NCBI GenBank assembly: GCA_022710715.1
Contig: JAKLGJ010000003.1
Span: 25,083 to 89,082 of the forward strand
Length of the DNA: 64,000 nt
Reading direction: 5' to 3'
Source: Candidatus Omnitrophota bacterium
GTDB taxonomy: Bacteria; Omnitrophota; Gorgyraeia; Gygaellales; Profunditerraquicolaceae
Within the stretch, counting starts at the first letter, position 1, and each line of letters opens with the position of its first letter. Made by a program: the position numbers and the translations under genes. Positions 9,623-59,026 of this stretch are shown piece after piece. The notes beneath the pieces are model-generated. The model was not told where the DNA came from and ran no database searches. It was given only the letters and a program-made list of their open reading frames with translations.

Positions 9623-9663
9623 CATTTCTTACACAACAGCTCATCTACCTGGGGGGGGGAACG

Positions 9664-31654: not shown

Positions 31655-31862
31655 CCTTAAAACAAAACAACCGAGTTGCACTATCCAGGCAACCCGGCTA
31701 TCGAATATAATTTATTTCAGGGTTTTTAAAAGACCTTAAAATGAACTCTAACTAATTTCTCCCGTATTTCCCCTGAAACAAACTGCGTGTTACTTTCGAC
31801 CCGTGGCTTTCCGTCCCCGCCTTACGACGGGTTTGGCTTTGTCGTCACAAGTATGCCATATC
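31655..31862 (-). promoter_or_regulatory. c-di-GMP-I (GEMM)-like riboswitch candidate with terminator expression platform
   Basis: The minus-strand RNA reads GACGACAAAGCCAAACCCGUCGUAAGGCGGGGACGGAAAGCCACGGGUCGAAAG. It aligns position by position with the Vc2 GEMM aptamer: GGGCAAACC / hairpin with GNRA loop / GGGACGCAAAGCCUCCGG. It is followed by a 9-bp terminator stem CCGGGUUGC / GCAACUCGG and UUGUUUUGUUUU at 31659-31697. Confidence 0.55.
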
Positions 31863-34117: not shown

Positions 34118-34370
34118 AGACAACAAAAAAACCGAGTTGCGCTTGTTCGGCAACCCGGCTATCGAATAGATTGTTTGAGGGTTTTAAAAAGAGTTTAAGA
34201 TCAACTCAAAAAAAATTTCTGTTCCCCATTCCCCCAAAACAAATTGTCAGTTACTTTCGACCCGTGGCTTTCCTTCGGCGTGTTCATGCTGCGTTTCAAC
34301 CGAACTCCCGTCTGGGAGGTCCCCGCCTTACGACGAGTTTGGCTTTGTCGTTCAAAGTATGCCATACTTA
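34118..34370 (-). promoter_or_regulatory. second copy of the GEMM-like leader (with ~45-nt hairpin insertion) plus conserved terminator
   Basis: Matches copy 1 (...UAUGGCAUACUU..GACGACAAAGCCAAAC.CGUCGUAAGGCGGGGAC..GGAAAGCCACGGGUCGAAAGUAAC...) except for an inserted CUCCCAGACGGGAGUUCGG...CCGAA block. The terminator CCGGGUUGC / GCAACUCGG followed by UUUUUUUG is at 34121-34158. Confidence 0.45.
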
Positions 34371-36200: not shown

Positions 36201-37429
36201 TTCTTCCTCCTGGAAATTGTTTTCTGCAGGTCCAGTATCAACGCGTGCCTGCGTTCTTTTTCCGCTTGCTCCACGGTATCCGCCCAGGCATACGCCTCGG
36301 AATGCGGGCGCGGAGAGTACTTAAAGATGTACGCCGATTCGAACTCGACATCTCTGACCAGATCGACGGTTTGCTGAAAATCCTCCTGCGTCTCTCCGGG
36401 GAATCCCACGATAATATCCGTGCTTAAAGCGCCGCCGGGGACCAGCTTCCGGTACTGCCGCGCCAGATCGAGATAATACTCGCGGGTATACCCGCGATTC
36501 ATCCGTTTGAGCACCGCATTCGAACCGGCCTGAAAAGGCAGGTGCAGGTACGGCTTGATATTCGCATATTCGGCCATCACGCGGAATATTTCGACCGTGG
36601 TATCCCTGGGATGAGACGTAATGAAACTCAACTCATCCACTCCTTTAAGCTGCGCAACAGTCCGCAGCAGCGCGACAAAATCGCCCTCATCGCCGCGATA
36701 CGCATTGACGTTCTGACCCAGCAGAGTTATCTTGCGCCTGCCGCCGGCAGCCGCCTCCTTGATCTCGCGCACGATCTCTTTATACGGCCGATTGCGCAGG
36801 GCTCCGCGCACGAACGGGACCACGCAATACGCGCACATATTGGAACAGCCTTCGGAAATGACCACATACGCCTGCTCCGGATCCTGGCGGTATCCGGTAT
36901 GGTAGATCTCTTCCGGCCGGGACTCGGCGTCGGTCTCCCAGACCTTGACTTCATATAATGAAGATCCGCCCGATTGCTTCCGCGCGGAAAATAACCGCTC
37001 CAGGATCGCGGGGATTTTGGCGATATCCGCGGGACCGACCACAAAATCCACTGCCGGCGAACGCTCGAACACCGCCTCTTTGTAATTCTGGGCCATACAT
37101 CCCACAAGCCCCACCAGCGGCTTCTGCTTCGGTTTCTTACCGGCCGCGGACTTCCGCTGCGCGCGCGAGCTTTTGGTGAGCCTGCCGATCTCGCTCCAGA
37201 CCTTATCCTCCGCATGCTGGCGCACCGAACAGGTATTGAAGATCACCGCGTCGGCATGCTCGGCGGACTCTGTCAGCGCGTAGCCGGCCTGCTTGAGCAA
37301 CCCGGCGATCACCTCGCTGTCGCGCACATTCATCTGACATCCGAAGGTGCGCAAAAGTATACGCTTTCCATGACCCGGCTTGCCCTCGGATTTGCCTGTA
37401 TTGTCGTCGTTTCGCTCTTTTTCTGCCAT
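36197..37429 (-). CDS. miaB: tRNA-2-methylthio-N6-dimethylallyladenosine synthase
   Basis: TFGCQMN MTTase N-terminus. Radical-SAM CSNMCAYC. TRAM C-terminus. The first 100 nt overlap the recombinase 3' end. Confidence 0.85.
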   Translation of the reverse strand: MAEKERNDDNTGKSEGKPGHGKRILLRTFGCQMNVRDSEVIAGLLKQAGYALTESAEHADAVIFNTCSVRQHAEDKVWSEIGRLTKSSRAQRKSAAGKKPKQKPLVGLVGCMAQNYKEAVFERSPAVDFVVGPADIAKIPAILERLFSARKQSGGSSLYEVKVWETDAESRPEEIYHTGYRQDPEQAYVVISEGCSNMCAYCVVPFVRGALRNRPYKEIVREIKEAAAGGRRKITLLGQNVNAYRGDEGDFVALLRTVAQLKGVDELSFITSHPRDTTVEIFRVMAEYANIKPYLHLPFQAGSNAVLKRMNRGYTREYYLDLARQYRKLVPGGALSTDIIVGFPGETQEDFQQTVDLVRDVEFESAYIFKYSPRPHSEAYAWADTVEQAEKERRHALILDLQKTISRRKK

Positions 37430-39009
37430 TTTAGCCCCTCTTCATAACACATTTTCCAAGGTTCGTTAATCTCGACCTTGACGATCTCTTTGTTTTGAAT
37501 GTAAATGCCCTTGAATATAATCCTCATGAATGTTTTGATGAGATAGTCCATTTTCTCGCTGTTTGGATTGCTCCGCAGGCAAAGCAAAAAGTCCTGCGTT
37601 GCCTTGACCAAATTCACTGCATTGCGCTTTTCAAGAATCTTGATCTGAATCGCCTTCACATCCTGTCGGAGTTTCTTCTCCTCGTTTCTCAAAAGCTCGG
37701 CCCGATCCTTGTAGATATCAATATTGATCTTGTCCTCCGAGAAGACCTCGTAAAGCCCTTTCTGTTTCTCGAGATTTCTGGCAAGATCCTTTTCCTTGCC
37801 ATCCAGCTCTTCAATGATCTTATGCTCCGGCTCGGTGGCGCTAAGTTTGATGACGTCGCTCAATTCTTCAATAACGTGCAGGTTTTTGCTGATAGTGTCA
37901 ATGATATCCCAAACCTGCTTAGTAAGAACATCGGCGCGCACAGCCTTATTCGAACAATTGACATACGATACGCCCAGCGCCGAACACGCATACCACGGCC
38001 TTCTCATTTTGGTGCGGTGATTGCATGTAATCATCAGCCCACGGTAATTGCGGCCGCATTCGTTACATTTAACCACACCGGACAAGTGATACACGTTATT
38101 CCGGAAACGGACAACCGCATTCGTCCGGTTACGCGCTAAAAGTTTCTGCGCGGCATCATGCATCTCTTGCGTGATGATCGGCTCGTGGGCGTTTGGGACC
38201 TCGATCACCTTTGACGGATCATTATTCACGTAGCAATAGCCTTTACCCTCGCCATTCTTCGTCTTGCGCTTCTTATCGTAATGCCGCCGGTTCCACGTGA
38301 TCGTGCCCAAGTAAACCTTGCTATGCAAAATGTCCGAAATAAACTTGCCGTAAAATCTGCCGCCCTGTCTTGCCGAAACTCCAAGATGATAATAATGTCC
38401 GGCGATCTGCGCGGTACTCTTGCCGCCTAAATACTGATCGTAAATGTCCCTGACAATTTTTGCCTCTTCCGGATGAATCTCGAGCTTCTTGGTTTCTTTA
38501 TTGTGGCGATAGCCATACGGCGCAAAGCGTGCGCCTTGCCAGTGGCCGCGCTTAACACCCATGACCATGCCCGGGAATACACGCTCAACCAGACGATTGC
38601 GCTCAAACTCCGCACAAGAACCCAACATTTGAATCGCCATCTTACCGGCGCTGGAAGTCGTATCAAACGGCTCGGTCGCTGATTTATACCCAATGCCGAG
38701 GTTTTCAAACTCTTCGAGCAATCCCAACAAGTCCTTAAGCCGACGACTCAATCGATCCTGCTTATAGACCAAGACCAGATCGAACATCTTATTGCGCGCA
38801 TCGAAAAGAAGCTTTTTTAGCGCTGGCCTGTCCATATTCCCACCGGAAAATCCATCGTCCATGTAAACATCTCTTCCGGAAAGACTGCAAACAACATCCC
38901 AGCCGAAGTTCTTCGCGTATTGCAAAAGATAATTTCTCTGCACCTCCAGCGAAAAACCTTCTCTCGCTTGATCCTCTGTGCTAACTCTCGTATACAATGC
39001 GACTTTCAC
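37330..39009 (-). CDS. large serine recombinase (integrase)
   Basis: (GTG-start) MKVALYTRVSTEDQ...FDLVLVYKQDRLSRR resolvase catalytic domain, then a recombinase domain and a Cys-rich zinc-ribbon region. 559 aa. Confidence 0.85.
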   Translation of the reverse strand: MKVALYTRVSTEDQAREGFSLEVQRNYLLQYAKNFGWDVVCSLSGRDVYMDDGFSGGNMDRPALKKLLFDARNKMFDLVLVYKQDRLSRRLKDLLGLLEEFENLGIGYKSATEPFDTTSSAGKMAIQMLGSCAEFERNRLVERVFPGMVMGVKRGHWQGARFAPYGYRHNKETKKLEIHPEEAKIVRDIYDQYLGGKSTAQIAGHYYHLGVSARQGGRFYGKFISDILHSKVYLGTITWNRRHYDKKRKTKNGEGKGYCYVNNDPSKVIEVPNAHEPIITQEMHDAAQKLLARNRTNAVVRFRNNVYHLSGVVKCNECGRNYRGLMITCNHRTKMRRPWYACSALGVSYVNCSNKAVRADVLTKQVWDIIDTISKNLHVIEELSDVIKLSATEPEHKIIEELDGKEKDLARNLEKQKGLYEVFSEDKINIDIYKDRAELLRNEEKKLRQDVKAIQIKILEKRNAVNLVKATQDFLLCLRSNPNSEKMDYLIKTFMRIIFKGIYIQNKEIVKVEINEPWKMCYEEGLKWQKKSETTTIQANPRASRVMESVYFCAPSDVR

Positions 39010-39188
39010 TATTCTTCCTTTAGCGTCTCACGCCATTCTTTAATCTTGGCGATACACTCGTCCGTAAAAACCGGCCAGTCTTTGTAATCGCGTTTGGGCT
39101 TAACCCAGCCCTTGCGGATCCAATTGATCATGGTCTGCCGGTGAACTCCCAGCACTTTTGCCGTCTCTGTCATGGTGTAAGTTTTCAT
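39009..39188 (-). CDS. excisionase/AlpA-like HTH_17 DNA-binding protein (candidate recombination directionality factor)
   Basis: 59-aa ORF not in the track: MKTYTMTETAKVLGVHRQTMINWIRKGWVKPKRDYKDWPVFTDECIAKIKEWRETLKEE. Its stop overlaps the integrase GTG as TAGTG. Confidence 0.6.
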   Translation of the reverse strand: MKTYTMTETAKVLGVHRQTMINWIRKGWVKPKRDYKDWPVFTDECIAKIKEWRETLKEE

Positions 39189-39235: not shown

Positions 39236-39463
39236 CTATACAAGCGGTTTCTTCTCAAGGTCATAGCAATTTAGGAACATCCGCGACAACAGCTCTATTC
39301 CCTCATCAAACGATTTATGCGCCTCTTGGATTTCAGCACAAGACAGTCCCCGGATCTTTAGCTTTATCTCTAAAGCCTCCCAGCCCCGCGAGGTAACTGC
39401 CTGATCTTTATTCGTGCTTACAACCTTGCTCATCTTCCACTTCCCAATAGGACATTCGGACAT
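39236..39463 (-). CDS. hypothetical small protein
   Basis: 75-aa ORF downstream of regulatory repeat A. Confidence 0.3.
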   Translation of the reverse strand: MSECPIGKWKMSKVVSTNKDQAVTSRGWEALEIKLKIRGLSCAEIQEAHKSFDEGIELLSRMFLNCYDLEKKPLV

Positions 39464-39479
39464 TTTTCGTGTCGTATGA

Positions 39480-39745
39480 TGTCCGGTTTCACTGACATAC
39501 TGACATGACTCGTGTCAGTGAATGTCAGTCAAAACACCCCTCAAAACCCTCGAAATACCCGAAAATTGACGCTTTTTCCGCAAAAAACACCTATTTTGAA
39601 CCCCGTAGACCCTATTTTGACGTTCTCCCAATAGCCACATATGACATGACATCGATTTTTGAAATTTTGTATCACTGACAGAACGCGCCTCGCCCGACCC
39701 TCGGCCGACACCCCCTTCCAAGGACCCGTAGACCAGCATCGAGCT
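39480..39745. repeat. regulatory repeat A (TGACA/TGTCAG palindromes); diverged direct copy of region B at 58.7-58.97 kb
   Basis: Contains ACTGACATACTGACATGACTCGTGTCAGTGAATGTCAGT. The segment gacatgacatcgattttt...cgcctcgcccgaccctc...ccccttccaaggaccc is about 75-80% identical to 58868-58965. Confidence 0.6.
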
Positions 39746-39874: not shown

Positions 39875-42004
39875 TTAGAAAGGCCGCTCCGAATAATCAA
39901 CCTCACCCTCCCTGCGGACGCGTATGCCGTCCCACCGGCGAGACGCGCCGCAACGCCCCTTATTGATAGCGGGATATTGACGCAAGAGCTCCCGGCCAAA
40001 CATGATCTTGCTAAGCGGCCGGTACTCGCTCTCCAGACACCATTCCCGGTAAGCCACATACAAAGCATCACTGCCTATATCCGCCTGAGCGTCCAAGACA
40101 CACTGCTCCTCCACAAAGATGATCACGTTATTGTTCTCCTTGCGATAGGCGTCCTTCACGGTCTGCATCGAGGCGCTCTCCTCGAAATACCCGCGCTTCC
40201 TTAAACGCGTAAGGCCGTTAAGCGACCACAAGAAAATGCCGTCCAGCTCACTGGCCACGATCTTATGCTTTAACTTTGGATCGCGTTCCTCTATTGAAAA
40301 CTGCCGGTTAAACGGAAGGATTAAAAGCCGCCGGTAATACCCCTCGGTCTTATCCCCCACGCGCGGCATGTTATTGGTTGAGAAAAGAAGCTTGCAGTAA
40401 GGTTTGAATTGAAACGGCTGGCCGTATTTTTCGTCAGCGGAGATCGTATCGCCGGTCACGATCGCCTTAAACATGTTGTCATAGACATTTGTCTTGGCAT
40501 TGGTTTCAAGACTGATATTGACCAGTTTGTCCCGAAGCCGGGCTATGTAATGGGAATCGTTAAACTTCTCAAGCGGGATGGATGAGCAATTGTCCTTACC
40601 GATAAGCTCCTCGAGCACATACAAAACAACGCTTTTCCCATTGGCCCCCTCGCCAAACAAAAAGAGCGCCTTTTCATAATCATTGTCCCGGGTGAGGCAA
40701 TAGCCGAAATACTCCTGCAAAAGCATGATCCGGGCCGCGTCGCTTTCGAATATCTGATCAAGACTCTTCTGCCACAACAAACACTCGGCGTTTCCGCGAT
40801 ATGTCACATTAAGCTGGTTGATGGAATAGACATCCGCCGAATGCGGCAAGAGCTTCATCTTGTCGATGTCATAAAGCCCGTTTTTGACATTAAAGAGCGT
40901 GATGCCGTTAATGATGTCCGGCTTGATGAAAGTCTCGGTCTTAAGCGCGACAAGAACATTGCGAAGCTTGCTCGCTGAAAACCCGGCCCCGCAAGCATCC
41001 TTGATCCACTTCTGCACCTCCTCAACAAAAAGCGGCCGGTAACACCCGCCTTTGTATTCATAATAGGTGTCAGCGAAATTGATCAACCGATGATGCTTGA
41101 GAATTTCGTCAGCGACCTCATTGGCGTTAACCTTTCTGGCTATAAGCAGGCTTGGCCGCGACGACGCATAAACCTCCCCGCAATCATTCACCGCCTTTTC
41201 GATAACCGATTGGCCATAGGTCCGGCCGTCACCAAAATGCTTCTCATCCCACTTCGGCCGCATGAGGCCTGACTGCCGGAATAACGCGTCCATCTGCCCG
41301 GCGTCTTTGCCTGTCCAGAAGGCTAGCTTATTGCAGAGCGCCAGATCGGCTTCACTTTGAGAGGGATAATCGTTCTGCCATTGGCCGGAATAAAGCCGCT
41401 GAAACCTCTCCGCGTCTTTACTCTTGGCGATTAAGGAAAAGATGTCGTTAGCGGGGGCTTTATCTACAAACCGGCTGAATATGTCTTTAAGCGCATCAGT
41501 GCACTCGTTAAGTTCAGCCGAATAATTTTCAAGGCGTTTACCGGTAACGGTAAAGAATCGGCCCTTGGTATAAATCTCCAAGCCGATCTTTGAAATCTTG
41601 CAGGCCCGGGCGATCTTGCCCTTACAAAGAATATGAATACCTGTGCCGCTTGGCGAATACTCCGAATATGAATCAAGCGCCTTAAGAATCTCAACTGCAT
41701 ACGGCGCGATGGCTCCGTCTTTGACGCAGTGGTCAATATCCACGCCCACATACGGCGGCTGGAATACAAAGCCGACTCCCGCATAGCCGCGCTGAAGCGC
41801 AAGATCGCTTGCGGTCGTAAAGTCCGTCCATGTGCTTGGATCGTTTGTTTTGGCAGGACGTCCGGTAAGGACGTTCATCGGAACCTTGTCGGTGCGGTCT
41901 TTATTGTGCCTGAGCTGATAACCGACCCAACAAGACAGTTTAAGCAATTCCTGAGGAATAACCTCTTCGATCTTTCTCTTCTCTTTTCTTCTCTCGTCTT
42001 CCAT
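39875..42004 (-). CDS. bifunctional prim-pol / P4-type primase-helicase (D5-like NTPase)
   Basis: GVGFVFQPPYVGVDIDHC...SPSGTGIHIL is a prim-pol domain. The C-terminal half has Walker A FGEGANGKSVVL, typical of phage/plasmid primase P4-like proteins. Confidence 0.75.
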   Translation of the reverse strand: MEDERRKEKRKIEEVIPQELLKLSCWVGYQLRHNKDRTDKVPMNVLTGRPAKTNDPSTWTDFTTASDLALQRGYAGVGFVFQPPYVGVDIDHCVKDGAIAPYAVEILKALDSYSEYSPSGTGIHILCKGKIARACKISKIGLEIYTKGRFFTVTGKRLENYSAELNECTDALKDIFSRFVDKAPANDIFSLIAKSKDAERFQRLYSGQWQNDYPSQSEADLALCNKLAFWTGKDAGQMDALFRQSGLMRPKWDEKHFGDGRTYGQSVIEKAVNDCGEVYASSRPSLLIARKVNANEVADEILKHHRLINFADTYYEYKGGCYRPLFVEEVQKWIKDACGAGFSASKLRNVLVALKTETFIKPDIINGITLFNVKNGLYDIDKMKLLPHSADVYSINQLNVTYRGNAECLLWQKSLDQIFESDAARIMLLQEYFGYCLTRDNDYEKALFLFGEGANGKSVVLYVLEELIGKDNCSSIPLEKFNDSHYIARLRDKLVNISLETNAKTNVYDNMFKAIVTGDTISADEKYGQPFQFKPYCKLLFSTNNMPRVGDKTEGYYRRLLILPFNRQFSIEERDPKLKHKIVASELDGIFLWSLNGLTRLRKRGYFEESASMQTVKDAYRKENNNVIIFVEEQCVLDAQADIGSDALYVAYREWCLESEYRPLSKIMFGRELLRQYPAINKGRCGASRRWDGIRVRREGEVDYSERPF

Positions 42005-42237: not shown

Positions 42238-42249
42238 GTTTTCAATGCC

Positions 42250-42840
42250 TCCTACTAGCTACATACGCAAAGATTTGGAAAACTGACGGAAATATTTTCA
42301 TTTTTTTCGACCCTCTACTAGCTACATACGACGTTTTTTGTAAAACTGCCGGAAATTTCTTCACTTTCTTCACTACTTTCGCTCCCCTAAGCGTATATTC
42401 CGGATTTTTCCGGAAAGTGTCGGGAATATTTGTCCCCTCATAGGTGATTACGCAAAATTTCCAAAAGTGTCGATGCTTTTGGCAAACTTTTTTCACCTTC
42501 CATAGGTAAAGACGACATTTTTTCCAAAGTGTCGGGGCCCTCTACCGTAGGTATTACGTTTTTAGGTCCAAAATTTAGCATGATCCTTCAACTTTCCTTC
42601 CCAAGGCGTATATACAACCTTTTTTGTCAAAGTGTCCCACCCCTCACCGTAGTTATATGCTTTGGAAGGCAAGATTTCGCATCCCCCACATATGAACACG
42701 CAAAAAATCGAAAAGTGTAATACCCCCAAGCCCTCCCATAGGTGATTACAGAAAAAATGCGAAAGTGTAGGGGCCCTCACCTATGTACACGCAATTTTTT
42801 TCAAAGTGTCGAACTACCCTTCTACTAACCCATACAGGAA
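42250..42840. repeat. iteron-like direct repeat array (candidate replication origin)
   Basis: Two 63-bp-spaced copies of ctactagctacatacg...gaaaactg.cggaaat. Then seven degenerate units with an AAAGTGT(C/A) core followed by (C)ATAGGT / CGTAGGT at 40-100 bp spacing, at 42414, 42464, 42526, 42628, 42713, 42763 and 42803. Confidence 0.55.
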
Positions 42841-43125: not shown

Positions 43126-43506
43126 TTAATCTTCATGCTCAAGCGGCTTTTCCGGGATCATATCGTAAACCATGGTCTGGATCTCATATTCAAACCATTC
43201 CTGAAACACCTTCCACGACCTGTCCTTTGGCCACATCTCAGGATCCGTATACCAGCCGCCAAGCTCGTGCTCAAATATTTCTACGCAATGCTTCTTCAGA
43301 AACTTTTCGAACTTCTCATTCTCCTCATAGGCCGGGATCAAATACACATGCTTTGAATCAAAACCGTCGGTCTCAACATCCTCCGGCTTCATCTCATGTT
43401 CCGGCCCGTCATACTCCTTGCTGGTGTAGACCAACCAGTCAATGAAAGGCTTTTTCAGCTTCACGATCAAAGCGGCGCGGTTGATGTCGGGAAAATATTG
43501 TTCCAT
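43126..43506 (-). CDS. hypothetical small acidic protein (last gene of the 13-gene array)
   Basis: 126-aa ORF that directly abuts the stop of the TPR gene. Confidence 0.4.
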   Translation of the reverse strand: MEQYFPDINRAALIVKLKKPFIDWLVYTSKEYDGPEHEMKPEDVETDGFDSKHVYLIPAYEENEKFEKFLKKHCVEIFEHELGGWYTDPEMWPKDRSWKVFQEWFEYEIQTMVYDMIPEKPLEHED

Positions 43507-46362
43507 TTAGCTGATCGGGTAATTTAGTTTTATCCACTGATCAATTTTCTTGTTAACACTATGCATAAGGTGCTCGGCTAAACCAAGTTTCTTAGCAAGG
43601 ACTTGGCCAAACAGCTTGATAATTTTTTGAGGTGATCCACGTTTCGCCAATAATCCTATAATTAGATACAAATATCTATCCTTGATTTCATCGGGCAATG
43701 TCTCAATAAGTATCATCTTCATAAAATCTGTTAACACTGCAAATAACGACTCAACGGATGTTTCCTTGGAATCAAGAACGACGACAGCCATGTCAAATGC
43801 ATTGCCTGACTGTATCTGGAAATTATCTTTTTCTGCATAATAAAAAAGCATTTTTGCGGATATAGAAAGATAAAAATAACCAATCTTCATCAATTCGAGT
43901 ATTTTGTCGCAGTAGTCGTTTTCGGCCAGGGCTCCTTTTTGCAGAGCAACTGCAAGAAAATTCTGAATGCCAAAAGATTCGATTTTATGCTCGTTGCGAA
44001 TTAATTCTCTGAAGAAGACGTCATCACAAAACAATGGTATTTGTTTTTCGACGCACGATTGGATCGAATATATATAGGGCAATCCCAGTATTTTTTCTTT
44101 ACCTTTAAAACTATCATCCAATGGATGCTCTAATCCTATTGTTTTGAAATCCTGCGAATTTCGTATTTTTTCAAGAAAATCAATTTTCATTTTAATATTT
44201 TCAGCAGAGATTTCTTGTCGAAAGGCTTTTCCTTCTCGCGAGAAAATCGTTGTTAGCCCCTCGTCCTTGCTTTTGCTTAACTCCATAATCTCCATATCCA
44301 GCTCATCAAGCGTGGCTTTAAGAACATACACTTCGGAAAACATCTTCAATGGCAAATACAACAAATCCAAAAAGCCTAACGTAAACAATGCGATCGGCTC
44401 AATGATGGCCTTATTAGAATTAAGAACGATCTCCTGCTCTTTTCTTTGCTCAAGAGCACTTCCGTTAGCACAATAAAGCTTAGATCCTTGACCAATAAGT
44501 GCGCCCCAACAGACGAATAGGCTCCTTCCAGAAAAAGCAGAAAGCGCGCCAATGGTAATATTTTTTGATAAATACATTTCCATTATTTTCGTTGATCTGT
44601 CCGATGCTTTACTCAACATATCCTTCAGTCTTTCCGGACTAGCTTCAACTTTCCAAATTGCCTTATTATCAGGGAAAGAAATGTTAAAGTTATCTAAAAT
44701 ATTCTGGAAGGCTTTCACGTATTTACTTTTAATCTCAACTATCTTGATAACGTCATCTGCACCGTATTCATTTTTAACTATTATTTCGTCCATAACCCTT
44801 TTCCCGTAAAGTGCCTTGCCCAAACCGGAATCCTTATATAGCTCGAATTTGGCAATCGACGATTTAGGATTTGCAGTAATCAAGTATTCTTGATCGTGTC
44901 CATTCTTTTTAATCTTCACAAAGAAATTTTCGCGAACAGTTTCGGAATCTAACATTTCGCTCTTTTTATCTTTTCGGCTTGTAAACGTGTAAATATAAAA
45001 CAGTTGGATCTCCGGATTATTGAAATCGATTTCCAACGCTTTAAATAATTGCTTTATAGCTTCGTCATGGTTTTGGATTTTTAAGAATGCTCTCGCCAAA
45101 ATGAGGAAAGAATCCTTGTCTTCAACTTCATCTTTAACCTCAGATAGCAGTTTTATTCCCGCATCCTTTTCCTTTCCTATATCAATCATGACTTTGGCAT
45201 AATTAAGTTTATGACGAATATTCTTTGGCTCACGCTTCGACAGTTCGAGGTATAAAGACATAGCGTCATCTAGTTGATCCATTTCCTCATAAATGGCCGC
45301 TTCCAACTCGAACGTAAAAGGAACAAACTTTCCTGATTTTCTAAGATTTTGGCAAATAGTTAAACATTTCTCGAGGTTCTTGCTTCTATGCTCTTTTGAT
45401 TTGTAAAGACAAATTAAATAATCCCGCAATACATCATCAAACAATGACTCCGAAATAAATGTTTCATATAACGGTATCGCCTTATCATATGCCCCAATAC
45501 TTTTAAAATGCCTCGCTAATTCGATTTCTGCTATGTTTTTTTCTAACCCAACAGAGTTTTGTCTTGCTTCAAGAGACAACTCTTCAAACGCTTTGACATT
45601 TCCTTGGCTTCTTTTCAGTTCTGCCTCTGCCAGCAGAATTCTTGGATTTCTCCCAAACTTTAAATAGAGATTGTCGACTATTTTTTGTGCTTCATCATAA
45701 GCCGCTTTCTTGCTTAAACATTCAATCATGAGTATCCCGGGGATAAGATCCTTTTCAGCCTCACCGTCATAATGCTTTCTTATTGCCTCAATGGCCTCAT
45801 CTACCTTGGAATCAGGACGCTCTAAATAACACGAAACTAAAATCGGAAAGATCTCATCTTTGTTGATACCTTTTTCTATCGCACAAATAAAATCTTTAAT
45901 CGCATCATCTGGTGATTTCCGCAAGGTATTAAGCCGCGCACGATTTGCATAGGCCGCCGCACTATCCGGATTAAGCACGATCGCCGCATTGATATCCTCA
46001 AAAGCTTTTGTAAAATCATCTAATATTATCCTGACGCTGGAGCGATTTATATACGCGTCTTCCAAGACGCCCTTCTTTTCTGAATCTTTTAATAAATCAA
46101 TCCCTTTACTTAATAGCCGTTCCGCCTCTTTCAGCTCTTCTATATGTTCTAGCAAAAGCCCAAATCGCCAAACCCTTTCCTTCATGATTGACTCAAGCAG
46201 ATATGAGCCAAACGAGAAATAGTTTTCGGCAATACCCGGATCAGCATCAATGGCACTTTGAAAATATTGCTTAGCATTTTTCCTATCGCCTTTATCGGCA
46301 TAGGCTATTGCAATATTCAACAATGCTCCGCTATCTTTTTGGAATCTTTTATCTATATTCAT
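43507..46362 (-). CDS. large TPR-repeat protein (951 aa), no NTPase motif seen
   Basis: Many TPR-like helix pairs (AIAYADKGDRKNAKQYFQSAIDADP etc.). Its start overlaps the upstream stop by 4 bp. Confidence 0.55.
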   Translation of the reverse strand: MNIDKRFQKDSGALLNIAIAYADKGDRKNAKQYFQSAIDADPGIAENYFSFGSYLLESIMKERVWRFGLLLEHIEELKEAERLLSKGIDLLKDSEKKGVLEDAYINRSSVRIILDDFTKAFEDINAAIVLNPDSAAAYANRARLNTLRKSPDDAIKDFICAIEKGINKDEIFPILVSCYLERPDSKVDEAIEAIRKHYDGEAEKDLIPGILMIECLSKKAAYDEAQKIVDNLYLKFGRNPRILLAEAELKRSQGNVKAFEELSLEARQNSVGLEKNIAEIELARHFKSIGAYDKAIPLYETFISESLFDDVLRDYLICLYKSKEHRSKNLEKCLTICQNLRKSGKFVPFTFELEAAIYEEMDQLDDAMSLYLELSKREPKNIRHKLNYAKVMIDIGKEKDAGIKLLSEVKDEVEDKDSFLILARAFLKIQNHDEAIKQLFKALEIDFNNPEIQLFYIYTFTSRKDKKSEMLDSETVRENFFVKIKKNGHDQEYLITANPKSSIAKFELYKDSGLGKALYGKRVMDEIIVKNEYGADDVIKIVEIKSKYVKAFQNILDNFNISFPDNKAIWKVEASPERLKDMLSKASDRSTKIMEMYLSKNITIGALSAFSGRSLFVCWGALIGQGSKLYCANGSALEQRKEQEIVLNSNKAIIEPIALFTLGFLDLLYLPLKMFSEVYVLKATLDELDMEIMELSKSKDEGLTTIFSREGKAFRQEISAENIKMKIDFLEKIRNSQDFKTIGLEHPLDDSFKGKEKILGLPYIYSIQSCVEKQIPLFCDDVFFRELIRNEHKIESFGIQNFLAVALQKGALAENDYCDKILELMKIGYFYLSISAKMLFYYAEKDNFQIQSGNAFDMAVVVLDSKETSVESLFAVLTDFMKMILIETLPDEIKDRYLYLIIGLLAKRGSPQKIIKLFGQVLAKKLGLAEHLMHSVNKKIDQWIKLNYPIS

Positions 46363-47336
46363 CTTCCACCCTTCTCGGCATAAAGCTCAATAGCCTCATC
46401 AAGGCGTCCACCGGCTCGCAACAACATGGCTTTAAGATTGATACAGTCATTATTATCCGGTTCCAATGAAATTGCGGCGTCGATAAACGGCAACCCTTCC
46501 AACGGCTTATCATCAAATAGACTTGCAAGCGCTCTATTCTTGCAAGCAATCACGGATTTTTTTCCCAAAATATCAAATGCCAACTTAAAATTAATAGCGG
46601 CAGATTTTCTATCCCCCAACGCCGCTTGACATGCTCCCAAGTTGTTATGAACCTTAAACCTTGCCATAATAGGAACTTGCCCATCAGATTCAAACGCTTT
46701 TAACAGCCCTTCATATATGACCTTTGCCGTACCAAATTTTTCCTTGTCTAATAGGATTTTGGCCTCATCTATGTTTTTCTTATATTTTGAACTGGCTAGT
46801 TCCGCATCGCTATCTATCGCCAAAACTGCCGGTGGTTCTAAAGACGCGCTTTTCTTTGCTTGAGATGCAACGGCGCCTAGAACATTATCCTGTTTGAGTA
46901 TCGACAATATTTCGTTTACACCATTAAGGGTTGCTTCTGAAGTTTGAGCGCTCGAAATAGGAACATTTTCAGATTCAGGTAGCGTTGCGCCAAAGTGCTC
47001 AAGAAATTTTGAAACAATTTTATTAACTGTGGCTTCTGTTTCATTCCCAAAGTCAGCGCCACAATTAATCAGGCTTTGGCGCAGTTCTGCGGTAACAATT
47101 TTAGGATTAGTTCGGTAATTAGTCTTAAGCAATCTAACAAGTTGGCTGTTCTCGCCGAAAGACGATCTCAACAAGTAATCTATCGATTCAATTTGCAAAT
47201 CAATCCCTGTCTTGCTGATTGAAATACTTATGCTCATCAGCAAGGGATCCTTCTTAAAAAGCCACTTTAACGACTTATCTAGCCCATGCTTAATCGCATG
47301 CCCAATAATCAATTGCTGCAACCACAAAAAATTCAT
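46359..47336 (-). CDS. hypothetical protein with C-terminal TPR repeats
   Basis: 325-aa ORF. The C-terminus AKVIYEGLLKAFESDG...AISLEPDNNDCINLKAMLL is TPR-like. Confidence 0.45.
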   Translation of the reverse strand: MNFLWLQQLIIGHAIKHGLDKSLKWLFKKDPLLMSISISISKTGIDLQIESIDYLLRSSFGENSQLVRLLKTNYRTNPKIVTAELRQSLINCGADFGNETEATVNKIVSKFLEHFGATLPESENVPISSAQTSEATLNGVNEILSILKQDNVLGAVASQAKKSASLEPPAVLAIDSDAELASSKYKKNIDEAKILLDKEKFGTAKVIYEGLLKAFESDGQVPIMARFKVHNNLGACQAALGDRKSAAINFKLAFDILGKKSVIACKNRALASLFDDKPLEGLPFIDAAISLEPDNNDCINLKAMLLRAGGRLDEAIELYAEKGGR

Positions 47337-47363
47337 CAGAGTCCTCTTTTATAAAATCCGCGA

Positions 47364-48152
47364 TTATTTTAGTGGCGTGGTACATGTGCCATCGCTATCG
47401 GTACGAAATACCTTAGTGCTATTTGTCCTATATCGCTGAAGGGCTGTGTTACTAGGAAGATTATCAAAAACACCTGACTGAGTTGAAATAATCGTATCTC
47501 TGGGCGATACGGCTTTTATAAAATCCAAATTTGCACCGTTCTCAGAACCATGATGACTTGCACGTAAAACATGGCAATTAGATAGCTTCCAATCGGCCAT
47601 AATGAGTTCGAGCTCAGAATCAGATGCATCTCCGCAGACTAAAAAATTATTGGCAGGACTAGAAACCCAGACGACAAGACTTGCATCATGGCACTCTCGT
47701 GTTTCATTATTATTTACATTCTTTCGTGGCCCCAAGACAAGGAATTCACAGTCGGAAAACTTTTTTCTTACATCTTTCGTGCAAGTAAACCTTTTTTGAT
47801 TATCCGGTACCAGTGCATCCTTCAGCTTGAGGTATTCATTCCAATCATCTAACGACAAGGAATTATCCCCGTGCCTGCGTTGATATGGGGATCCCCAGAA
47901 TTCAGCGACAGTGAAATTACCTACCAAATCCTCCATCCCCAAATAGTGATCGTGATGTGGGTGCGTGATAATCAGCAAATCTATATAAGTTTTCCCGATA
48001 GTCTGTTTTAAATAATTGGCAATGTTTGTTGGTTTTGATGCTCCGTTACTGAAACGTCTATACCCGCAATCTATAACAACAAGATCATTGTCCATCTCAA
48101 AAATTGCGCAATCCGCACACCCGACATTTAAAAAATGAGCTTTAAACGACAC
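47364..48152 (-). CDS. ComEC-type MBL-fold metallo-hydrolase (stand-alone, putative nuclease)
   Basis: ITHPHHDHYLG (HxHxDH) and the ASHHGSENG motif typical of the ComEC/Rec2 beta-lactamase-like domain. Confidence 0.6.
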   Translation of the reverse strand: MSFKAHFLNVGCADCAIFEMDNDLVVIDCGYRRFSNGASKPTNIANYLKQTIGKTYIDLLIITHPHHDHYLGMEDLVGNFTVAEFWGSPYQRRHGDNSLSLDDWNEYLKLKDALVPDNQKRFTCTKDVRKKFSDCEFLVLGPRKNVNNNETRECHDASLVVWVSSPANNFLVCGDASDSELELIMADWKLSNCHVLRASHHGSENGANLDFIKAVSPRDTIISTQSGVFDNLPSNTALQRYRTNSTKVFRTDSDGTCTTPLK

Positions 48153-48155
48153 TTC

Positions 48156-49259
48156 CTATACTCCTATCTTCTTTAATAGGTTTTCAGCATTTGAGTCCAT
48201 GTATACTTTGGGCGTTCCACCAGTGCCCTCAAAAGAAATCAAAATATGATGACCATTTCGCGTGCTTACAGAAAAGCAATCTTCGGTCTCCCCGTCAATA
48301 TCAACGCTTAACCCAGAGGCCCCTTCTGATGATTGGTATCTGCTGTCAATCGATCCATCTTTATCGTCTCCGTGCCGCTTATCAGAAATCACAACCAATG
48401 CAGGTTTATTGTTTTTCATAGAAAGAAACAAGTCTTCAGAAAATCCCGATTCTAATCCGTGATGTGGTGCGATGAGAATTGACAGGCCGTAATCTTTTAG
48501 CAACTTCTTTAATGATGGCTGGTCACCAGAAACAGAGTGCCATTCTGGATGTTCAGAACTTTTTTGCCTGTCGAATATCGTGTAACGCTTTTCAAGCCCT
48601 TTCCCTTCATTTAATAAATGTTTTAGGCAATCAGGTGTTATGTCACCGGGAATCAGCATCGTATGGATTCCATGTCGATAAAAAAGCACTAAGCTCGTCC
48701 CATTTCCATAATCTTGATCATTTTTAGGATGAAGTTCATTTACAACTGGCGGCCTCACATAGAAAAGACCGTACTCGAGATTTGGAACAGACCGCGAAGA
48801 CTCATAACAAATTGTTTGTAGTGGCAATGTCCTAGAAGAATAAAGCTCTTTGTATAGCTTTATATTTTCCTCACTCCCCTCAGGGTTCTTTATTCGCTCC
48901 CAATCAAGCGCCTCGGGTTTTGCGGAACCATCCGTCTTATCATGTGGACAAGTATGGAGAGAAGAATAAAAAAGCGAGTTCTTGCCATCTTTTGATGCAA
49001 GCGAGACTATTTCCGAAATATGATCTGCATGCGGATGCGAAAGAATTGTTTGGGCAACCTTGCATTTTTTGTAATCATCGAGATGCGGGATTACGTGCTT
49101 AGACAGAAATTCGGTGGGGCTGAATTCTTGGCTACACCCAAAATCATATAAGATTCCTTGGTTCAAACCTGTCCGGATAAAAATACTTAATCCACGACCA
49201 ACATTGAATACCCAAATAAAACTTTTGATCGTTTGGGCCCATTGAGGGACTTTTGCCAT
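48156..49259 (-). CDS. ComEC-type MBL-fold metallo-hydrolase paralog
   Basis: SHPHADHISE and LIAPHHGLESG motifs. 367 aa. Confidence 0.6.
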   Translation of the reverse strand: MAKVPQWAQTIKSFIWVFNVGRGLSIFIRTGLNQGILYDFGCSQEFSPTEFLSKHVIPHLDDYKKCKVAQTILSHPHADHISEIVSLASKDGKNSLFYSSLHTCPHDKTDGSAKPEALDWERIKNPEGSEENIKLYKELYSSRTLPLQTICYESSRSVPNLEYGLFYVRPPVVNELHPKNDQDYGNGTSLVLFYRHGIHTMLIPGDITPDCLKHLLNEGKGLEKRYTIFDRQKSSEHPEWHSVSGDQPSLKKLLKDYGLSILIAPHHGLESGFSEDLFLSMKNNKPALVVISDKRHGDDKDGSIDSRYQSSEGASGLSVDIDGETEDCFSVSTRNGHHILISFEGTGGTPKVYMDSNAENLLKKIGV

Positions 49260-49268
49260 ATGCTCACC

Positions 49269-49922
49269 TTATTCCTTGCCAAAAACAGCCGCCGAAGCAG
49301 ATTTATTTTCACGCGAATTTAAATAGCCTATCCCACTGAATAGTTGAATCGCGCAGACCAAAACACACGAAATCGCTATGGTTATTATTGTTTGCCCAGC
49401 GACATATAAAATTACCGCTAATAATGCTGAATTTAGAATTCCCACAAGATACAGCCACCACGATTGAGAACTTAAAATATTGAAGAAAGGCGGCTTTGCG
49501 CAGTTGGTATACATTTTACTTTTGTTCTCAAAACCCAAAGGCTTGGCTGAAAGGAATAATCCCCGCTGTTCGTTGATATACCGCATACAAAAAACAAAAT
49601 AAACCCTATTCCTGACGATCAAAAAGAACATACAAAGACCGAATATAAAAGCAATAGTCAACCCAACAATCAACGCGGCTTTTATATCCAACCCCTTGTC
49701 GATGGAGTACTGATAAAGACCGATCGCGATACCAGCAATTGTCGTATAAAATGTTGCCAGAAATTTAAAAACATCCACTATCTGCGCATCGTAATATCTG
49801 ACTTGGTCAAAGCATTGATTGAAATCATTCTGCAAGAAATCGACGGCCGCTTTCTCCAGCTCCGTATTCTTATCATTGCTCATAACGCCTCCTCTAAATT
49901 TATCCGCGAAAACTTCATACAA
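49269..49922 (-). CDS. membrane protein (about 4 TM)
   Basis: Hydrophobic helices. Its start overlaps the hsdS stop. Confidence 0.45.
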   Translation of the reverse strand: MYEVFADKFRGGVMSNDKNTELEKAAVDFLQNDFNQCFDQVRYYDAQIVDVFKFLATFYTTIAGIAIGLYQYSIDKGLDIKAALIVGLTIAFIFGLCMFFLIVRNRVYFVFCMRYINEQRGLFLSAKPLGFENKSKMYTNCAKPPFFNILSSQSWWLYLVGILNSALLAVILYVAGQTIITIAISCVLVCAIQLFSGIGYLNSRENKSASAAVFGKE

Positions 49923-51252
49923 CCAGCTCCCCGCGGAAGGCTTTGGCTAAAATTGACTGCTCGAGCTTGTCCGTATAGCTTTTTGACTTGATATATCTCT
50001 CGACAAAACCATCAAGCGCACTGAAGCTCGATTTAACTTTACTAACGATCTGATCCTGCTCCGCTTTAGGCGCAAAAACAAAAGGCAATTCTCTGACTCG
50101 TTGACAATTAAGGGCCTGCGGGCCAGACCCACTGCCAAAACTTCTGTTATTTTCATATTGATAATGAAACCAATACCAAAGATATTCGGGATTTACCCGT
50201 CCATGGGCTATTTGAACGGCCGCAATGTTCTGATTTATTGCGGCCTCAATATTAAGAATTGCAGATTGCCCTCTAGTTTTTCCCTCACCTATCATCGCTA
50301 TCAAAACTGTACCCGTAGGAAATAATTTACTTGAGCAGTTATCCAATCCTTCCTGCGTTATCCTTTCGCGAGATGCGCTAATTTTATTATTTCGCACTTC
50401 TCCAGAACTTATCCATGGTATTGAACCATTCCAATATTTGGTAATTTTTCGCGATGGAGTGCTCCCGTTGTTTACAACCCCGATAAACCCGATACAACAC
50501 GCCACCCAAGAAGAAGGAAAATTGAACTGCTCTTCATAGCTCGCTAAAGAAATTTTAGTAATTTCCTCAAAGTTTTTCTTTTCGCGGTTTGTTATTTCTG
50601 ACTTTAGAATAAACTCTCTTATTAAAGCGAGGTCATCTTCAGCGTTTAACGTGTTGTTTTCTATCCTCCACGTCTTCGTCAGCTCACCGGAGAAAGCCGC
50701 GGCAAGGACAGATTGACGAAAACGACTCAAGATCACAGGAATTGTGTCGAGGCGGGATTGGGCGTCTTTGACTTTTGCCAGCAGACTATCGAGCTTGTCT
50801 GCAATGCTCTTTTGTTCTTCTTCATCGGAAGGAAACGAAATCTCGGCAGTCTTAAGGAAATTCTTGTTGATATGCTGAAGCCCTGTACCAGTACTGGTTT
50901 CAAGAATAAAGTTCTTGCTTCTCCGTATAAAATATTCAAGAAACTTGGTATTTAATCCATTTTTAGGCGACAAGACAGCCATTGTGGAGCCAACTGCGCC
51001 AGTCATTCCGCTGGCACATTTGCCTATACTTCCATCCCAAACCAGTAAAACATCCTCTTTTTTTGCTCTGGGTACTTTGGGATCATTGGTAAATGACCGA
51101 GCCGGTTTACCCTCTAATTCATCAATTAAAATATAAGGATCATATCCTTTCTTTTCATGGCTGATGACGGCGGCAGGTTTTTTCCCTTTACGAGAAGAAA
51201 CTACATCCTTTAATGGACTTGAAATCCATCCCTTGGGCAATTTATTCTCCAT
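49915..51252 (-). CDS. hsdS: type I restriction-modification specificity subunit
   Basis: MENKLPKGWISSPLKDVV is an HsdS TRD N-terminus. Two-TRD architecture with conserved central and C-terminal helices. Confidence 0.75.
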   Translation of the reverse strand: MENKLPKGWISSPLKDVVSSRKGKKPAAVISHEKKGYDPYILIDELEGKPARSFTNDPKVPRAKKEDVLLVWDGSIGKCASGMTGAVGSTMAVLSPKNGLNTKFLEYFIRRSKNFILETSTGTGLQHINKNFLKTAEISFPSDEEEQKSIADKLDSLLAKVKDAQSRLDTIPVILSRFRQSVLAAAFSGELTKTWRIENNTLNAEDDLALIREFILKSEITNREKKNFEEITKISLASYEEQFNFPSSWVACCIGFIGVVNNGSTPSRKITKYWNGSIPWISSGEVRNNKISASRERITQEGLDNCSSKLFPTGTVLIAMIGEGKTRGQSAILNIEAAINQNIAAVQIAHGRVNPEYLWYWFHYQYENNRSFGSGSGPQALNCQRVRELPFVFAPKAEQDQIVSKVKSSFSALDGFVERYIKSKSYTDKLEQSILAKAFRGELVV

Positions 51253-55335: not shown

Positions 55336-55343
55336 ACTTTCCC

Positions 55344-56054
55344 TTATTTGTAAGCGACCAGCTCGCCGCTATCAGCGAAGCTGTGATACTGGTTATCCCC
55401 TATAATTAAGTGATCGAGCACTTTGACCTGCATCACATTGCCTGCCTGACAAAGCTCCCTTGTAAAATCTCTGTCTTCCTTGCTGGGTTTCGGATCCCCG
55501 GAGGGGTGATTATGCAGGCAGATGATTGACACAGCGAACTTCTGCAGAGCGCAGTGAATAATCTCTCTAACTATCGGCATCGCACGGTTAACTGTTCCGG
55601 ACGCCGTATCTGTGATGTCTATAATCCGATTGTTTGAATCGAGACAGACGACCTTGAAGACCTCTGTTTTGAGGTCGCGAAGCTGTGGCATGACGATATC
55701 CACAACATCCTTGGCAGAGGCGATCTTCTGCTTCCCGGTGGACACATCATCCTGTCGATAGCGCCGCCCGATTTCAAGCGCGGCCTGAATATGGGCGATC
55801 TTGGCCCCGCCTAAGCCCTTGAACTCCTTCCAGTCCCGGGCGTCGGTGTGAGCCATGTTGCGAAATGTACTGAATTTCTTGAGTATCTTGCGGGCGAGGT
55901 CAATGGCGCTGGTGCCAGCGGTGCCGGTACGAAGAAGAATGGCCAGAAGCTCTGAATTACTCAAAGCCCCCGCACCCTTTTTGAGGAGTTTTTCTCTCGG
56001 CCTGTCATCCTCCGGCCAAGACTTTATGCCTGATATTTTTCTTTCCTTCACCAT
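55344..56054 (-). CDS. RadC-like JAB/MPN domain protein
   Basis: WPEDDRPREKLLKKG HhH N-terminus and the JAMM motif HNHPSGDPKPSKED. Start set at the internal Met with a purine-rich SD. Confidence 0.7.
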   Translation of the reverse strand: MVKERKISGIKSWPEDDRPREKLLKKGAGALSNSELLAILLRTGTAGTSAIDLARKILKKFSTFRNMAHTDARDWKEFKGLGGAKIAHIQAALEIGRRYRQDDVSTGKQKIASAKDVVDIVMPQLRDLKTEVFKVVCLDSNNRIIDITDTASGTVNRAMPIVREIIHCALQKFAVSIICLHNHPSGDPKPSKEDRDFTRELCQAGNVMQVKVLDHLIIGDNQYHSFADSGELVAYK

Positions 56055-56110
56055 TCTTCTCTTCTCTGTTCTTCTCTTGAAGATTCCGCACACACTGTGT
56101 GCAGAATTTT

Positions 56111-58965: not shown

Positions 58966-59026
58966 TCCAAACATAAAAAAACCCTATGACCTCGCTTTTT
59001 AAAACGACCATAGGGATGAGTTGTTA

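Follow-up and report, generated by a model that had tools for sequence, protein, structure and literature searches.

Two lambda-type cos-like sites in a putative phage satellite of an Omnitrophota bacterium

The window analysed here is a stretch of 64,000 nucleotides from a Candidatus Omnitrophota bacterium (assembly GCA_022710715.1, contig JAKLGJ010000003.1, positions 25,083 to 89,082 of the forward strand). It holds two direct repeats, A and B, about 19.2 kb apart. We consider it likely that both are cos packaging sites of the lambda type, each laid out as cosQ-cosN-cosB, and that they belong to an Omnitrophota phage satellite resembling phage-inducible chromosomal islands, or PICIs. Judging from its repeats, cos B would mimic the cos of phages with GGACAT-type sites, whose small terminase (TerS) has the recognition helix SPRMIRRY. 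Cos A appears to join a helper-like cosQ and cosN to a TGTCA-based cosB found only in islands.

The repeat pair and its match to lambda cos

An earlier note on this DNA had reported repeats of about 250 bp with 75-80% identity. Pairwise alignment supports a real repeat, far above chance, but a shorter one. The sole significant segment pairs 39643-39728 with 58873-58957 (about 88 bp) at 75% identity (E ~1e-11, z = 23; blastn and Smith-Waterman, with z scores taken from local alignment against dinucleotide shuffles), whereas the left 160 bp (39480-39640 vs 58690-58870) is not significant alone (z = 1.0) and the entire reported span is 59% identical between A and B. The strings quoted at the time (gacatcgattttt, cgcctcgcccgaccctc and ccaaggaccc) are all present, and the half-sites do differ systematically, being TGACA/TGTCA in copy A and GGACA/TGTCC in copy B, a difference kept in related islands. 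Because the genes at 35-59 kb all lie on the minus strand, both modules are read here as reverse complements.

Cos A (39450-39727, on the minus strand like every sub-site below) lies between a primase-helicase gene and a 75-aa gene and comprises cosQ, a cosN-like core and cosB. Its cosQ-like heptamer GGGTCCT (39721-39727) is identical to lambda bp 48473-48479 and to the corresponding heptamers of N15 and phi80; we take lambda cosQ to be exactly this heptamer, after Wieczorek and Feiss 2001. Next comes the cosN-like core GAGGGTCGGGCGAGGCGC (39685-39702), with nick positions inferred from the alignment to lambda and a predicted 12-nt cohesive end GGTCGGGCGAGG at 39688-39699. Exactly 8 nt after the core, at the position of lambda I2, stands an invariant AGTGAT (39671-39676), and this spacing does not vary across the modules seen. 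The A-type cosB consists of a tandem repeat at the R3 position, ATGTCATGTCAT (39641-39652), about 47-58 nt from the predicted nick, and of distal repeats, CTGACAttcaCTGACAc gagtc aTGTCAGtaTGTCAG (39492-39528). The latter are the CTGACA-N7-TGTCAG palindrome of the earlier note and are conserved in the related islands L102, L159, L141, L081/L124, L085 and L150. An additional set of TGTCC-type sites in copy A, overlooked until now (GGACAt...aTGTCCgaaTGTCC, 39450-39484), overlaps the first ATG of the 75-aa open reading frame (ORF) and is kept in orthologous A-sites.

Cos B (58671-58956) is a second complete cos-like module, with the same heptamer at 58950-58956, an identical core at 58915-58932 and a predicted cohesive end at 58918-58929. 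Its R3-position half-sites, ATGTCCATGTCC, form the tandem hexamers ATGTCCATGTCCAT of the B-type cosB (58870-58883), and the same motif occurs in 14 phage loci. The distal repeats GGACAtggatGGACAcgtaaaTGTCC (58723-58748), previously noted as a GGACA-N6-TGTCC palindrome, are conserved in island B-sites and, as GGACATGAGCGGACAT, stand in phages immediately before the start codon of a ParB-methylase gene. Both palindromes are conserved, each in its own lineage. The core sequence also has G-quadruplex potential.

The resemblance to lambda lies in sequence and in layout. The right end of lambda reads ...CACTTTACGGGTCCTTTCCGGTGATCCGACAGGTTACG and its left end GGGCGGCGACCTCGCGGG...; at 30 nt ahead of the nick, lambda, N15 and phi80 have the stretch TTTACGGGTCCTTTCCGG, which matches TTTACGGGTCCTTCCGG of the module. 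N15 and phi80 have the same (A/G)CGGGTCCTTTCCGG 30 nt ahead of the nick, and the phi80 record labels the stretch holding GGGTCCT 'cosQ; aka R4 region'. CosQ is a highly conserved element of 7 bp (PMC4669245), and a 7-bp cosQ about 30 bp upstream of the predicted nick is found at both 39721-39727 and 58950-58956. In a MAFFT alignment lambda cos is colinear with the module, cosQ falling on cosQ and R3 on the tandem hexamers, and at cosN lambda GGGCGGCGACCT, flanked by ACG and CGC, is paired with GGTCGGGCGAGG, flanked by GAG and CGC. R3 occupies bp 50-65 in lambda and 48-60 in N15 (PMC9026076); the tandem hexamers occupy about nt 47-58 counted from the predicted nick. The module core and the annotated cosL of P2 share GGCGAGGCG.

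The module family and the small terminase

The module belongs to a family of about 140 occurrences in Omnitrophota prophages, IMG/VR phage contigs and islands. The 16-mer GCCTCGCCCGACCCTC matches 44 IMG/VR contigs, about 40 of which carry the entire module, and a stricter pattern retrieved 106 stretches from the species-representative genome set, 102 of them true modules. The genome matches are nearly all to Candidatus Omnitrophota or to mislabelled 'Planctomycetales' metagenome-assembled genomes. In gene orientation the 5' part of the consensus is TTTACGGGTCCTT(C/G)(C/G)..GGGGG..GGGCGAGGGTCGGGCGAGGCGC-N8-AGTGAT, which is followed by 12-20 A/T-rich nt, two tandem TGTCNN, about 100 nt with A-tracts, an inverted hexamer pair and a ribosome-binding site. 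GGGTCCT stands 28-31 nt before GTCGGGCGAGG in 114 of the 127 unique modules and at 25 nt in one more (115/127). With blastn, neither module of the window matched any of 50,697 GenBank phages at E <= 1, and the family is apparently absent from cultured phages. In two members (L145, L134) core and hexamers are intact and the cosQ heptamer is missing; if they behave as lambda does, packaging could begin at these sites but would not end there.

The phage modules stand at the head of terminase genes. Roughly 38 contigs of IMG/VR and roughly 27 genome loci have, 100-215 bp downstream of the module, a gene with ParB_N and N6_N4_Mtase domains (ParB-methylase), and the order that follows is TerS, large terminase (TerL), portal, protease and capsid genes; in L071 the TerS gene is directly downstream of the module. 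The phage TerS, a helix-turn-helix protein of 208-242 aa, scores 3e-16 against PHROG 57 (terminase small subunit), and TerL matches GpA_ATPase (5e-78) and GpA_nuclease (3e-68). Later genes, judged by eye from their translations rather than with Pfam or PHROG, resemble gpW-like, lambda-type portal, protease, decoration and major capsid proteins. Upstream of the phage modules are replication genes of varying type. The family is hence found upstream of gpA-type terminase genes in about 65 phage or prophage loci; the window copies themselves lie in an island without terminase, as in PICIs.

The tandem hexamers vary together with TerS. Across 44 phage loci six hexamer types pair one-to-one, without exception, with variants of the TerS recognition helix: ATGTCC with SPRMIRRY, ATGTCA(A) with S(T/P)RMVRRY, GTGTCAG with SERTVYRW, GTGTCAtGGTCA with SYRTVYRW, TGTCGT/GGTCG with (S/T)xRTVQRW, and TGTCGG with DKRT(V/I)ERW. 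Since relatedness alone could yield such a match, phage pairs were binned by the identity of their ParB-methylases. In the 85-100% bin, median TerS identity is 93% in same-type pairs, as against 72% in the 34 different-type pairs, none of which exceeds 75%. Because TerS drops in different-type pairs even at 85% ParB-methylase identity or above, TerS and hexamers switch together in otherwise close phages. Tandem hexamers at the R3 position whose type tracks the TerS helix, also within bands of relatedness, are what would be expected of a cosB. The co-variation mirrors the pair lambda and phage 21, in which cosQ and cosN are identical, cosB and TerS differ, and the packaging preference exceeds 1000-fold (PMC4669245).

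All 14 phage loci with B-type hexamers, among them the resident prophage of Velamenicoccus archaeovorus LiM, have the TerS helix SPRMIRRY. The A-type R3 motif ATGTCATGTCAT has 0 matches in IMG/VR and occurs at island A-sites only. The earlier suggestion that the copies differ in specificity is well founded to this extent: the varying half-sites are conserved, co-vary with TerS in phages and are probably specificity determinants for a sequence-specific DNA-binding protein. We propose a code in which a TGTC-NN hexamer corresponds to one residue stretch of the small-terminase helix. For a whole group of uncultured Omnitrophota phages, both packaging specificity and cohesive ends could be predicted from sequence.

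The island, its relatives and other explanations

The genome matches fall into three contexts. In prophages the module is followed by the ParB-methylase, TerS and TerL genes. Island A-sites (at least 11 loci) run from DUF5659 and primase-helicase genes through the module to the 75-aa protein, an excisionase-like protein, a serine recombinase and a radical-SAM gene. At island B-sites (at least 12 loci) the module precedes 2-3 kb of variable genes and then RadC and restriction-modification (R-M) systems. In three loci (L082, L129, L148) a full-length TerS gene (PHROG 57, 2e-20) stands right after an A-site module that has its own hexamer type. The B-to-A pair recurs in five other genomes, always as direct copies with B upstream, 8-19 kb apart and with differing cargo. 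The spacing is 19,230 bp in the window, 19,280 bp in CAYQUS010000001, 18,549 bp in CAKKRH010000023, 8,704 bp in JAQUSB010000011, 8,893 bp in V. archaeovorus LiM and 8,087 bp in DJVT01000009.

Window B is 86-93% identical to the B-sites of islands in seven other genomes and 80% identical, over 236 nt, to the cos of phage L010, vs 67% to window A. Window A is 71-87% identical in nucleotides to other A-sites, the adjacent integrase genes being 73-90% identical; in L081 the A module reaches 87% and the integrase gene 74%, and in L085 the module is likewise above the integrase. By these identities A and B are separate lineages. Both modules are conserved in related islands and are probably functional elements, not products of chance similarity, and each is orthologous to the A- or B-type copies of other species, with B nearer to phage cos than to A; the earlier idea of a duplication within the element followed by drift does not agree with this pattern.

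The island of LiM (11.5 kb) is wholly visible. After host genes it begins with cos B, which is followed by a type III R-M system and the primase-helicase; cos A is next, ahead of the genes for the 75-aa protein, xis and integrase. Cos B lies less than 200 bp from the last host-like gene, and no structural genes were seen in the ORF translations, read by eye. The LiM prophage has a cos of the same ATGTCC type as the B-type cos of the LiM island, and its TerS is 100% identical to the GGACAT-type TerS of IMG/VR. One observation, this coexistence of an island and a matching prophage in LiM, would point to helper-dependent induction, excision, replication and transfer.

In the window the island is integrative, would measure roughly 21.6 kb and occupies the 5' end of a radical-SAM gene of the MiaB-like type; all genes named here are on the minus strand. 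Upstream of copy B is a class-D-like transpeptidase gene (59027-59815). The cargo between the cos sites (43126-58310; Pfam, PHROG) contains, in order of transcription, AbiEi/AbiEii, a metallophosphoesterase, RadC, a type I R-M system (hsdR, hsdM, hsdS), two MBL-fold proteins and a TPR-GreAB-C-PIN protein. After the cargo come a repeat-rich stretch and a DUF5659 gene, which precedes the primase-helicase (39875-42004; NrS-1 pol HBD, D5_N, DUF5906 and Pox_D5 by Pfam and PHROG), which is the island replicase. The first gene past cos A encodes the 75-aa protein (39236-39463; 65 aa from the second ATG), whose family is confined to Omnitrophota and which is predicted to form a two-helix hairpin (pLDDT 82). 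Considered as a possible redirecting factor like the PICI protein Rpp, it showed no Pfam or PHROG match, no winged helix-turn-helix and no fold match in the PDB (E > 3). It is followed by a 59-aa HTH_17 protein, excisionase-like by Pfam and PHROG (39009-39188), and by a large serine recombinase, the integrase (37330-39009; Resolvase, Recombinase, Zn_ribbon_recom; PHROG integrase 1.5e-107).

The recombinase adjoins the radical-SAM gene here and likewise in 10 or more other genomes, and the left junction lies at about 37366, exactly where a Logan contig of the same species begins. The 3' end of the recombinase gene and the 5' end of the radical-SAM gene overlap by 100 nt (37330-37429), and the island seems to supply the interrupted gene with a new start and 21 N-terminal codons (MAEKERNDDNTG...), an extension that is conserved in islands of other species. 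A search for the right end and for an empty site found neither: L056 diverged from the window in its last 30 nt only, and a metagenome scan for the radical-SAM 5' end returned island-bearing or decayed alleles only. No virion, lysis or terminase genes were found among the submitted ORFs (Pfam, PHROG; ORFs p84 and p217 lay outside the PHROG scan). ParB-methylase, TerS and phage replication proteins searched against the window gave no match, and a tRNA scan of the window found none.

The earlier note saw in the repeats a duplicated operator/promoter cassette, the modules being promoters with repressor operators, of which copy A would serve the 75-aa/xis/int operon and copy B the abiE array. Co-directional genes do lie downstream of each module, the repeated and inverted half-sites look like operators, the distal repeats of the phage modules abut the ribosome-binding site of the ParB-methylase gene, and the TGTCC-type sites of copy A overlap the start of the 75-aa ORF. 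Copy B, however, is not the immediate upstream neighbour of abiEi: more than 350 bp separate the abiEi start from the promoter-proximal end of the copy, and the abiE array has a near-consensus sigma-70 promoter of its own (TTGACA-17-TATACT, 11/12, 58374-58346), with its own palindromes, about 320 bp downstream of copy B. The gene strand of neither module holds a sigma-70-like promoter, and the invariant partner of the module is the terminase operon, which it precedes in about 65 phage or prophage loci. The hexamers follow TerS and no repressor. Nor is the excisionase-like helix-turn-helix protein a likely reader of them, because it is 81-98% conserved whatever the hexamer type of the neighbouring cos. 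We regard the operator explanation as quite unlikely, while a secondary regulatory role of the distal repeats is possible. A sigma-54 or extracytoplasmic function (ECF) promoter was also considered for the core and dropped for want of a supporting motif. The abiE control region (58311-58700) contains the palindromes TTGTCACAAA...TTTGTGACAA and AATGTTCACT-gttt-AGTGAACATT at about 58530-58610 and AAATGTCT...AGACATTT at 58688-58713, which are likely AbiEi operators, separate from the cos repeats.

It is very unlikely, in our view, that the modules are relics, now without function, which decayed prophages left behind in a defence island. The window is indeed without terminase or structural genes, and decayed islands are known: L099 and L103 are deletion remnants, and L166 (metagenome contig Ga0172375_10007334) is a decayed island at the same radical-SAM site that retains a C-terminal fragment of the excisionase-like gene and the last ~37 recombinase codons, together with an inserted GIY-YIG nuclease gene flanked by REP-like hairpins. 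In two B-type cos beside a blaD-like gene (L130, L152), about 50 nt are inserted between AGTGAT and the repeats at the R3 position; this should upset the distance from cosN to cosB, and these sites may be inactivated. Modules A and B, in contrast, keep cosQ, the core, the exact AGTGAT spacing and every repeat set intact; their orthologues are 71-93% identical, with the A module above the integrase coding sequence in L081 and L085; and the B-to-A architecture is kept in six genomes with different cargo.

Replication origins, with the repeats as iterons and the A/T-rich spacer serving the primase-helicase in the pri-rep-ori style of the Staphylococcus aureus pathogenicity islands (SaPIs) and with B as an orphan second origin, are a highly improbable explanation. 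Copy A is directly downstream of the primase-helicase gene, many phage modules follow replication genes (primase-helicase or HTH_36/DnaD-like), and short tandem repeats do stand beside an A/T-rich stretch. The constant neighbour of the module, however, is the downstream terminase operon, whereas the type of the upstream replication gene changes while the hexamer type stays unchanged. The core matches lambda cosQ/cosN and no known origin element, and 8-19 kb lie between island B-sites and the replicase. A more promising candidate for an origin is the non-coding, repeat-rich stretch at 42240-42810, upstream of the DUF5659/primase-helicase operon. On its minus strand it has at least 7 copies of a unit of about 37 nt ((G/T)ACACTTT, an A/T run, ...TA.A..GGRRGG) and two 57-nt copies, and the array, through matches to ORF p84, is also present in the related islands L085, L102 and L159. 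The stretch may be an origin of replication, with the units as iterons, or else an array of promoters.

Attachment (att) sites or a structured non-coding RNA, which direct repeats in a serine-recombinase element and a strand-asymmetric, G-rich core might suggest, are scarcely credible: serine-recombinase sites are expected to be about 40-50 bp long and to lie at element boundaries beside the recombinase, which is not where the modules are (copy A is 2.3 kb inside the integrase junction, and phage modules lie 3-9 kb from a serine recombinase, so that the recombination sites considered earlier find no support), and Rfam scans of the modules gave nothing at the gathering threshold or at E <= 1, while RNAalifold gave -4.4 kcal/mol without covariation and no conserved fold.

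Several points weigh against lambda-type cos sites as well. The bare local alignment to lambda is short, with z = 3.3 for copy A and 1.6, not significant, for copy B (L027 reaches 4.6); because the pairwise score is modest, the case for likeness to lambda rests on position, spacing and recurrence. The predicted cosN is two-fold symmetric about its predicted centre in 8 of 16 bp, read by eye, as against 10 of 16 in lambda (PMC9026076). In most of the phages the ParB-methylase gene comes between the module and terS, unlike in lambda. Cos ends and packaging are read from the sequence alone, and the phage hosts are uncultured. Contig ends near the module are k-mer repeat breaks and not termini; as candidate genome termini they were rejected because their positions differ or because they overlap by 55 nt, as is usual where an assembly breaks at a repeat. 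For the genome of the window itself a helper prophage was not found, and it is the LiM island and the recurrence of the pair that would place cos B within the excising unit. No reader of the A-type repeats was found in the window, which has no TerS gene and whose 75-aa protein is without a recognisable DNA-binding fold.

If both repeats are nevertheless cos sites, a helper phage with a gpA-type terminase would recognise the island cos, and its TerS would bind cosB both at the tandem pair at the R3 position and at the inverted set 130-150 bp further on. Terminase would nick cosN and package leftwards in window coordinates, which is the direction of transcription, and packaging would end at a later cosQ/cosN. 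Termination in lambda requires cosQ, cosN and I2 but not cosB (PMC4669245), so either site could act as a stop; since the cores are identical, ends cut at A or B would be compatible and would anneal. The pair of sites probably widens the range of usable terminases or of start and stop points. It may serve two helper specificities, provide extra stops to fill a large head, or allow cargo to be excised from cos to cos. What the analysis shows is the anatomy of the sites, their gene context in relatives, the co-variation and the conservation; cutting, packaging, helper dependence and the reason for two sites we infer.

That the two direct sites form a deliberate cos-to-cos cassette is conceivable though on the whole unlikely. 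Packaging by the helper terminase would begin at cos B, the mimic of the helper, and end at cos A, termination being blind to cosB. If true, the replicon and defence cargo (19.2 kb here, 8-9 kb elsewhere) could be cut from the chromosome or from concatemers and the integrase module left behind. Alternatively, the unequal spacing could give extra stops, so that multimers of a small island could fill a helper-sized head; on a concatemer read from B, successive cos would come at 19.2, 21.6, 40.8 and 43.2 kb. Either course would be a mode of packaging that has not been described in satellites, and would give defence systems a dedicated way to spread among Omnitrophota.

Just upstream of cos B, at 58975-59015 on the minus strand, is a hairpin, CCCTATGG...CATAGGG, followed by a T-run. 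A similar hairpin and T-run (CCCTATGG-N15-19-CCATAGGG, L060-L160) stand ahead of B-type cos sites in most genomes, independent of the upstream gene, and may be a terminator or a recombinase site. The hairpin often occurs right after the stop codon of a different serine recombinase (~38-55% identical; L139, L093, L110), which suggests that islands stand in tandem arrays or that the hairpin is a target of the recombinase and not simply a terminator. The sequence CCGGGTC is common to the left junction of the island and the flank of cosQ in cos B. Elsewhere in the window, two minus-strand elements resemble the c-di-GMP-I-GGC riboswitch, one at 31684-31846 (61 bits, above the Rfam gathering score) and one of 208 nt at 34145-34352 (31 bits, E = 1.4e-5), which appears to carry an insertion. 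Both riboswitch-like leaders precede paralogous genes of 661/662 aa, and their segments are 85-92% identical. Between two minus-strand genes lies an inverted repeat (GGGGACGTTCCCCAAGGTACCACCCCTGG and its complement, 20575-20634), perfect over 29 nt and with 2 nt between its arms, and tandem repeats of 135-147 nt, 71-78% identical, lie at 9788-10266 within a 1179-aa ORF (9484-13023).

Comparison with known satellites and with lambda

The island has the marks of a phage satellite. It combines an integrase, of a family unlike that of classical PICIs, with a fixed locus; it has its own replication module and no virion or lysis genes; and its two cos-like modules, of which B is 80% identical to a phage cos, would form a helper-hijacking packaging signal. 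The tyrosine integrase, AlpA and Rpp beside cos that mark Gram-negative PICIs are not found, and neither an Rpp homologue nor AlpA was identified in the island. It is an island that would work like a PICI, outside that lineage.

The closest parallel is EcCICFT073, which is likewise an integrative island with a replicase, no virion genes and two cos sites. In E. coli PICIs the first gene past the island cos occupies the position of the phage terS (PMC9026076), and the cos combines helper-like cosQ and cosN with a cosB of another type, which is read by way of Rpp, a protein of the island (PMC9026076; PMC6739421); cos A resembles them in its helper-like cosQ/cosN and different cosB. Both cos sites of EcCICFT073 are functional and SaPIbov4 has two putative ones (PMC6092414), and the two-cos arrangement is a variant of this known theme. 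The differences are a large serine recombinase here and a tyrosine integrase there, one cos here that fully mimics the helper cosB whereas the PICI cos is without recognisable R repeats, relatives of this island that in some cases encode TerS, and a cargo consisting mostly of defence systems. A helper-mimicking and an island-specific cosB side by side offer a natural system for asking why satellites like EcCICFT073 keep two cos.

The SaPIs, which are elements of Gram-positive bacteria, differ in their tyrosine integrases, in an Stl repressor and in genes for capsid remodelling, and have no sequence relation to the island. SaPIbov5 reportedly has a cos site together with its own TerS/pac. Shared with SaPIs are a helper-like cos, sometimes two packaging signals and, in some cases, a small terminase encoded by the element (PMC6092414). 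P4, the satellite of P2, has a D5-type primase-helicase as replicase and a cos copied from its helper, as the island would have; P4 has one cos and a tyrosine integrase, and the island is without homologues of psu, sid, delta and epsilon. P4-like elements carry defence hotspots (PMC9122126). In the literature searched, neither satellites of Omnitrophota nor the present family of cos sites is described, and the islands appear to be the first phage-satellite family in Omnitrophota, ultra-small and partly predatory bacteria. Inserted at one conserved gene and with R-M, AbiE and PIN-TPR systems between packaging sites, they are a likely vehicle for the phage-mediated spread of defence genes.

With lambda and its relatives (N15, phi80, 21) the modules share the order and spacing of sub-sites, over about 200-280 bp here and about 200 bp in lambda (PMC4669245). 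They also share the cosQ heptamer and the bases flanking it, a G-rich core that follows about 28-30 nt downstream, a large terminase of the gpA family, and repeats, here putatively TerS-binding, that begin about 45-50 nt after the nick and are followed by an inverted distal set. In both families cosQ and cosN are conserved while cosB and the TerS helix-turn-helix vary and with them packaging specificity. Three members (L017, L022, L143) have the R3-position pair alone, like the 'simple' cosB of N15; 'complex' versions exist as well. The modules differ from lambda in the core (GGTCGGGCGAGG here, GGGCGGCGACCT in lambda), in having tandem 5-6-mers where lambda has 16-bp R sites, in distal repeats that lie further out, at about 180-205 nt, in the ParB-methylase gene that usually parts cos from terS, in their Omnitrophota hosts and in ends that are predicted. 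The lambda cosQ and the layout of its cos appear to be conserved far beyond the Proteobacteria.

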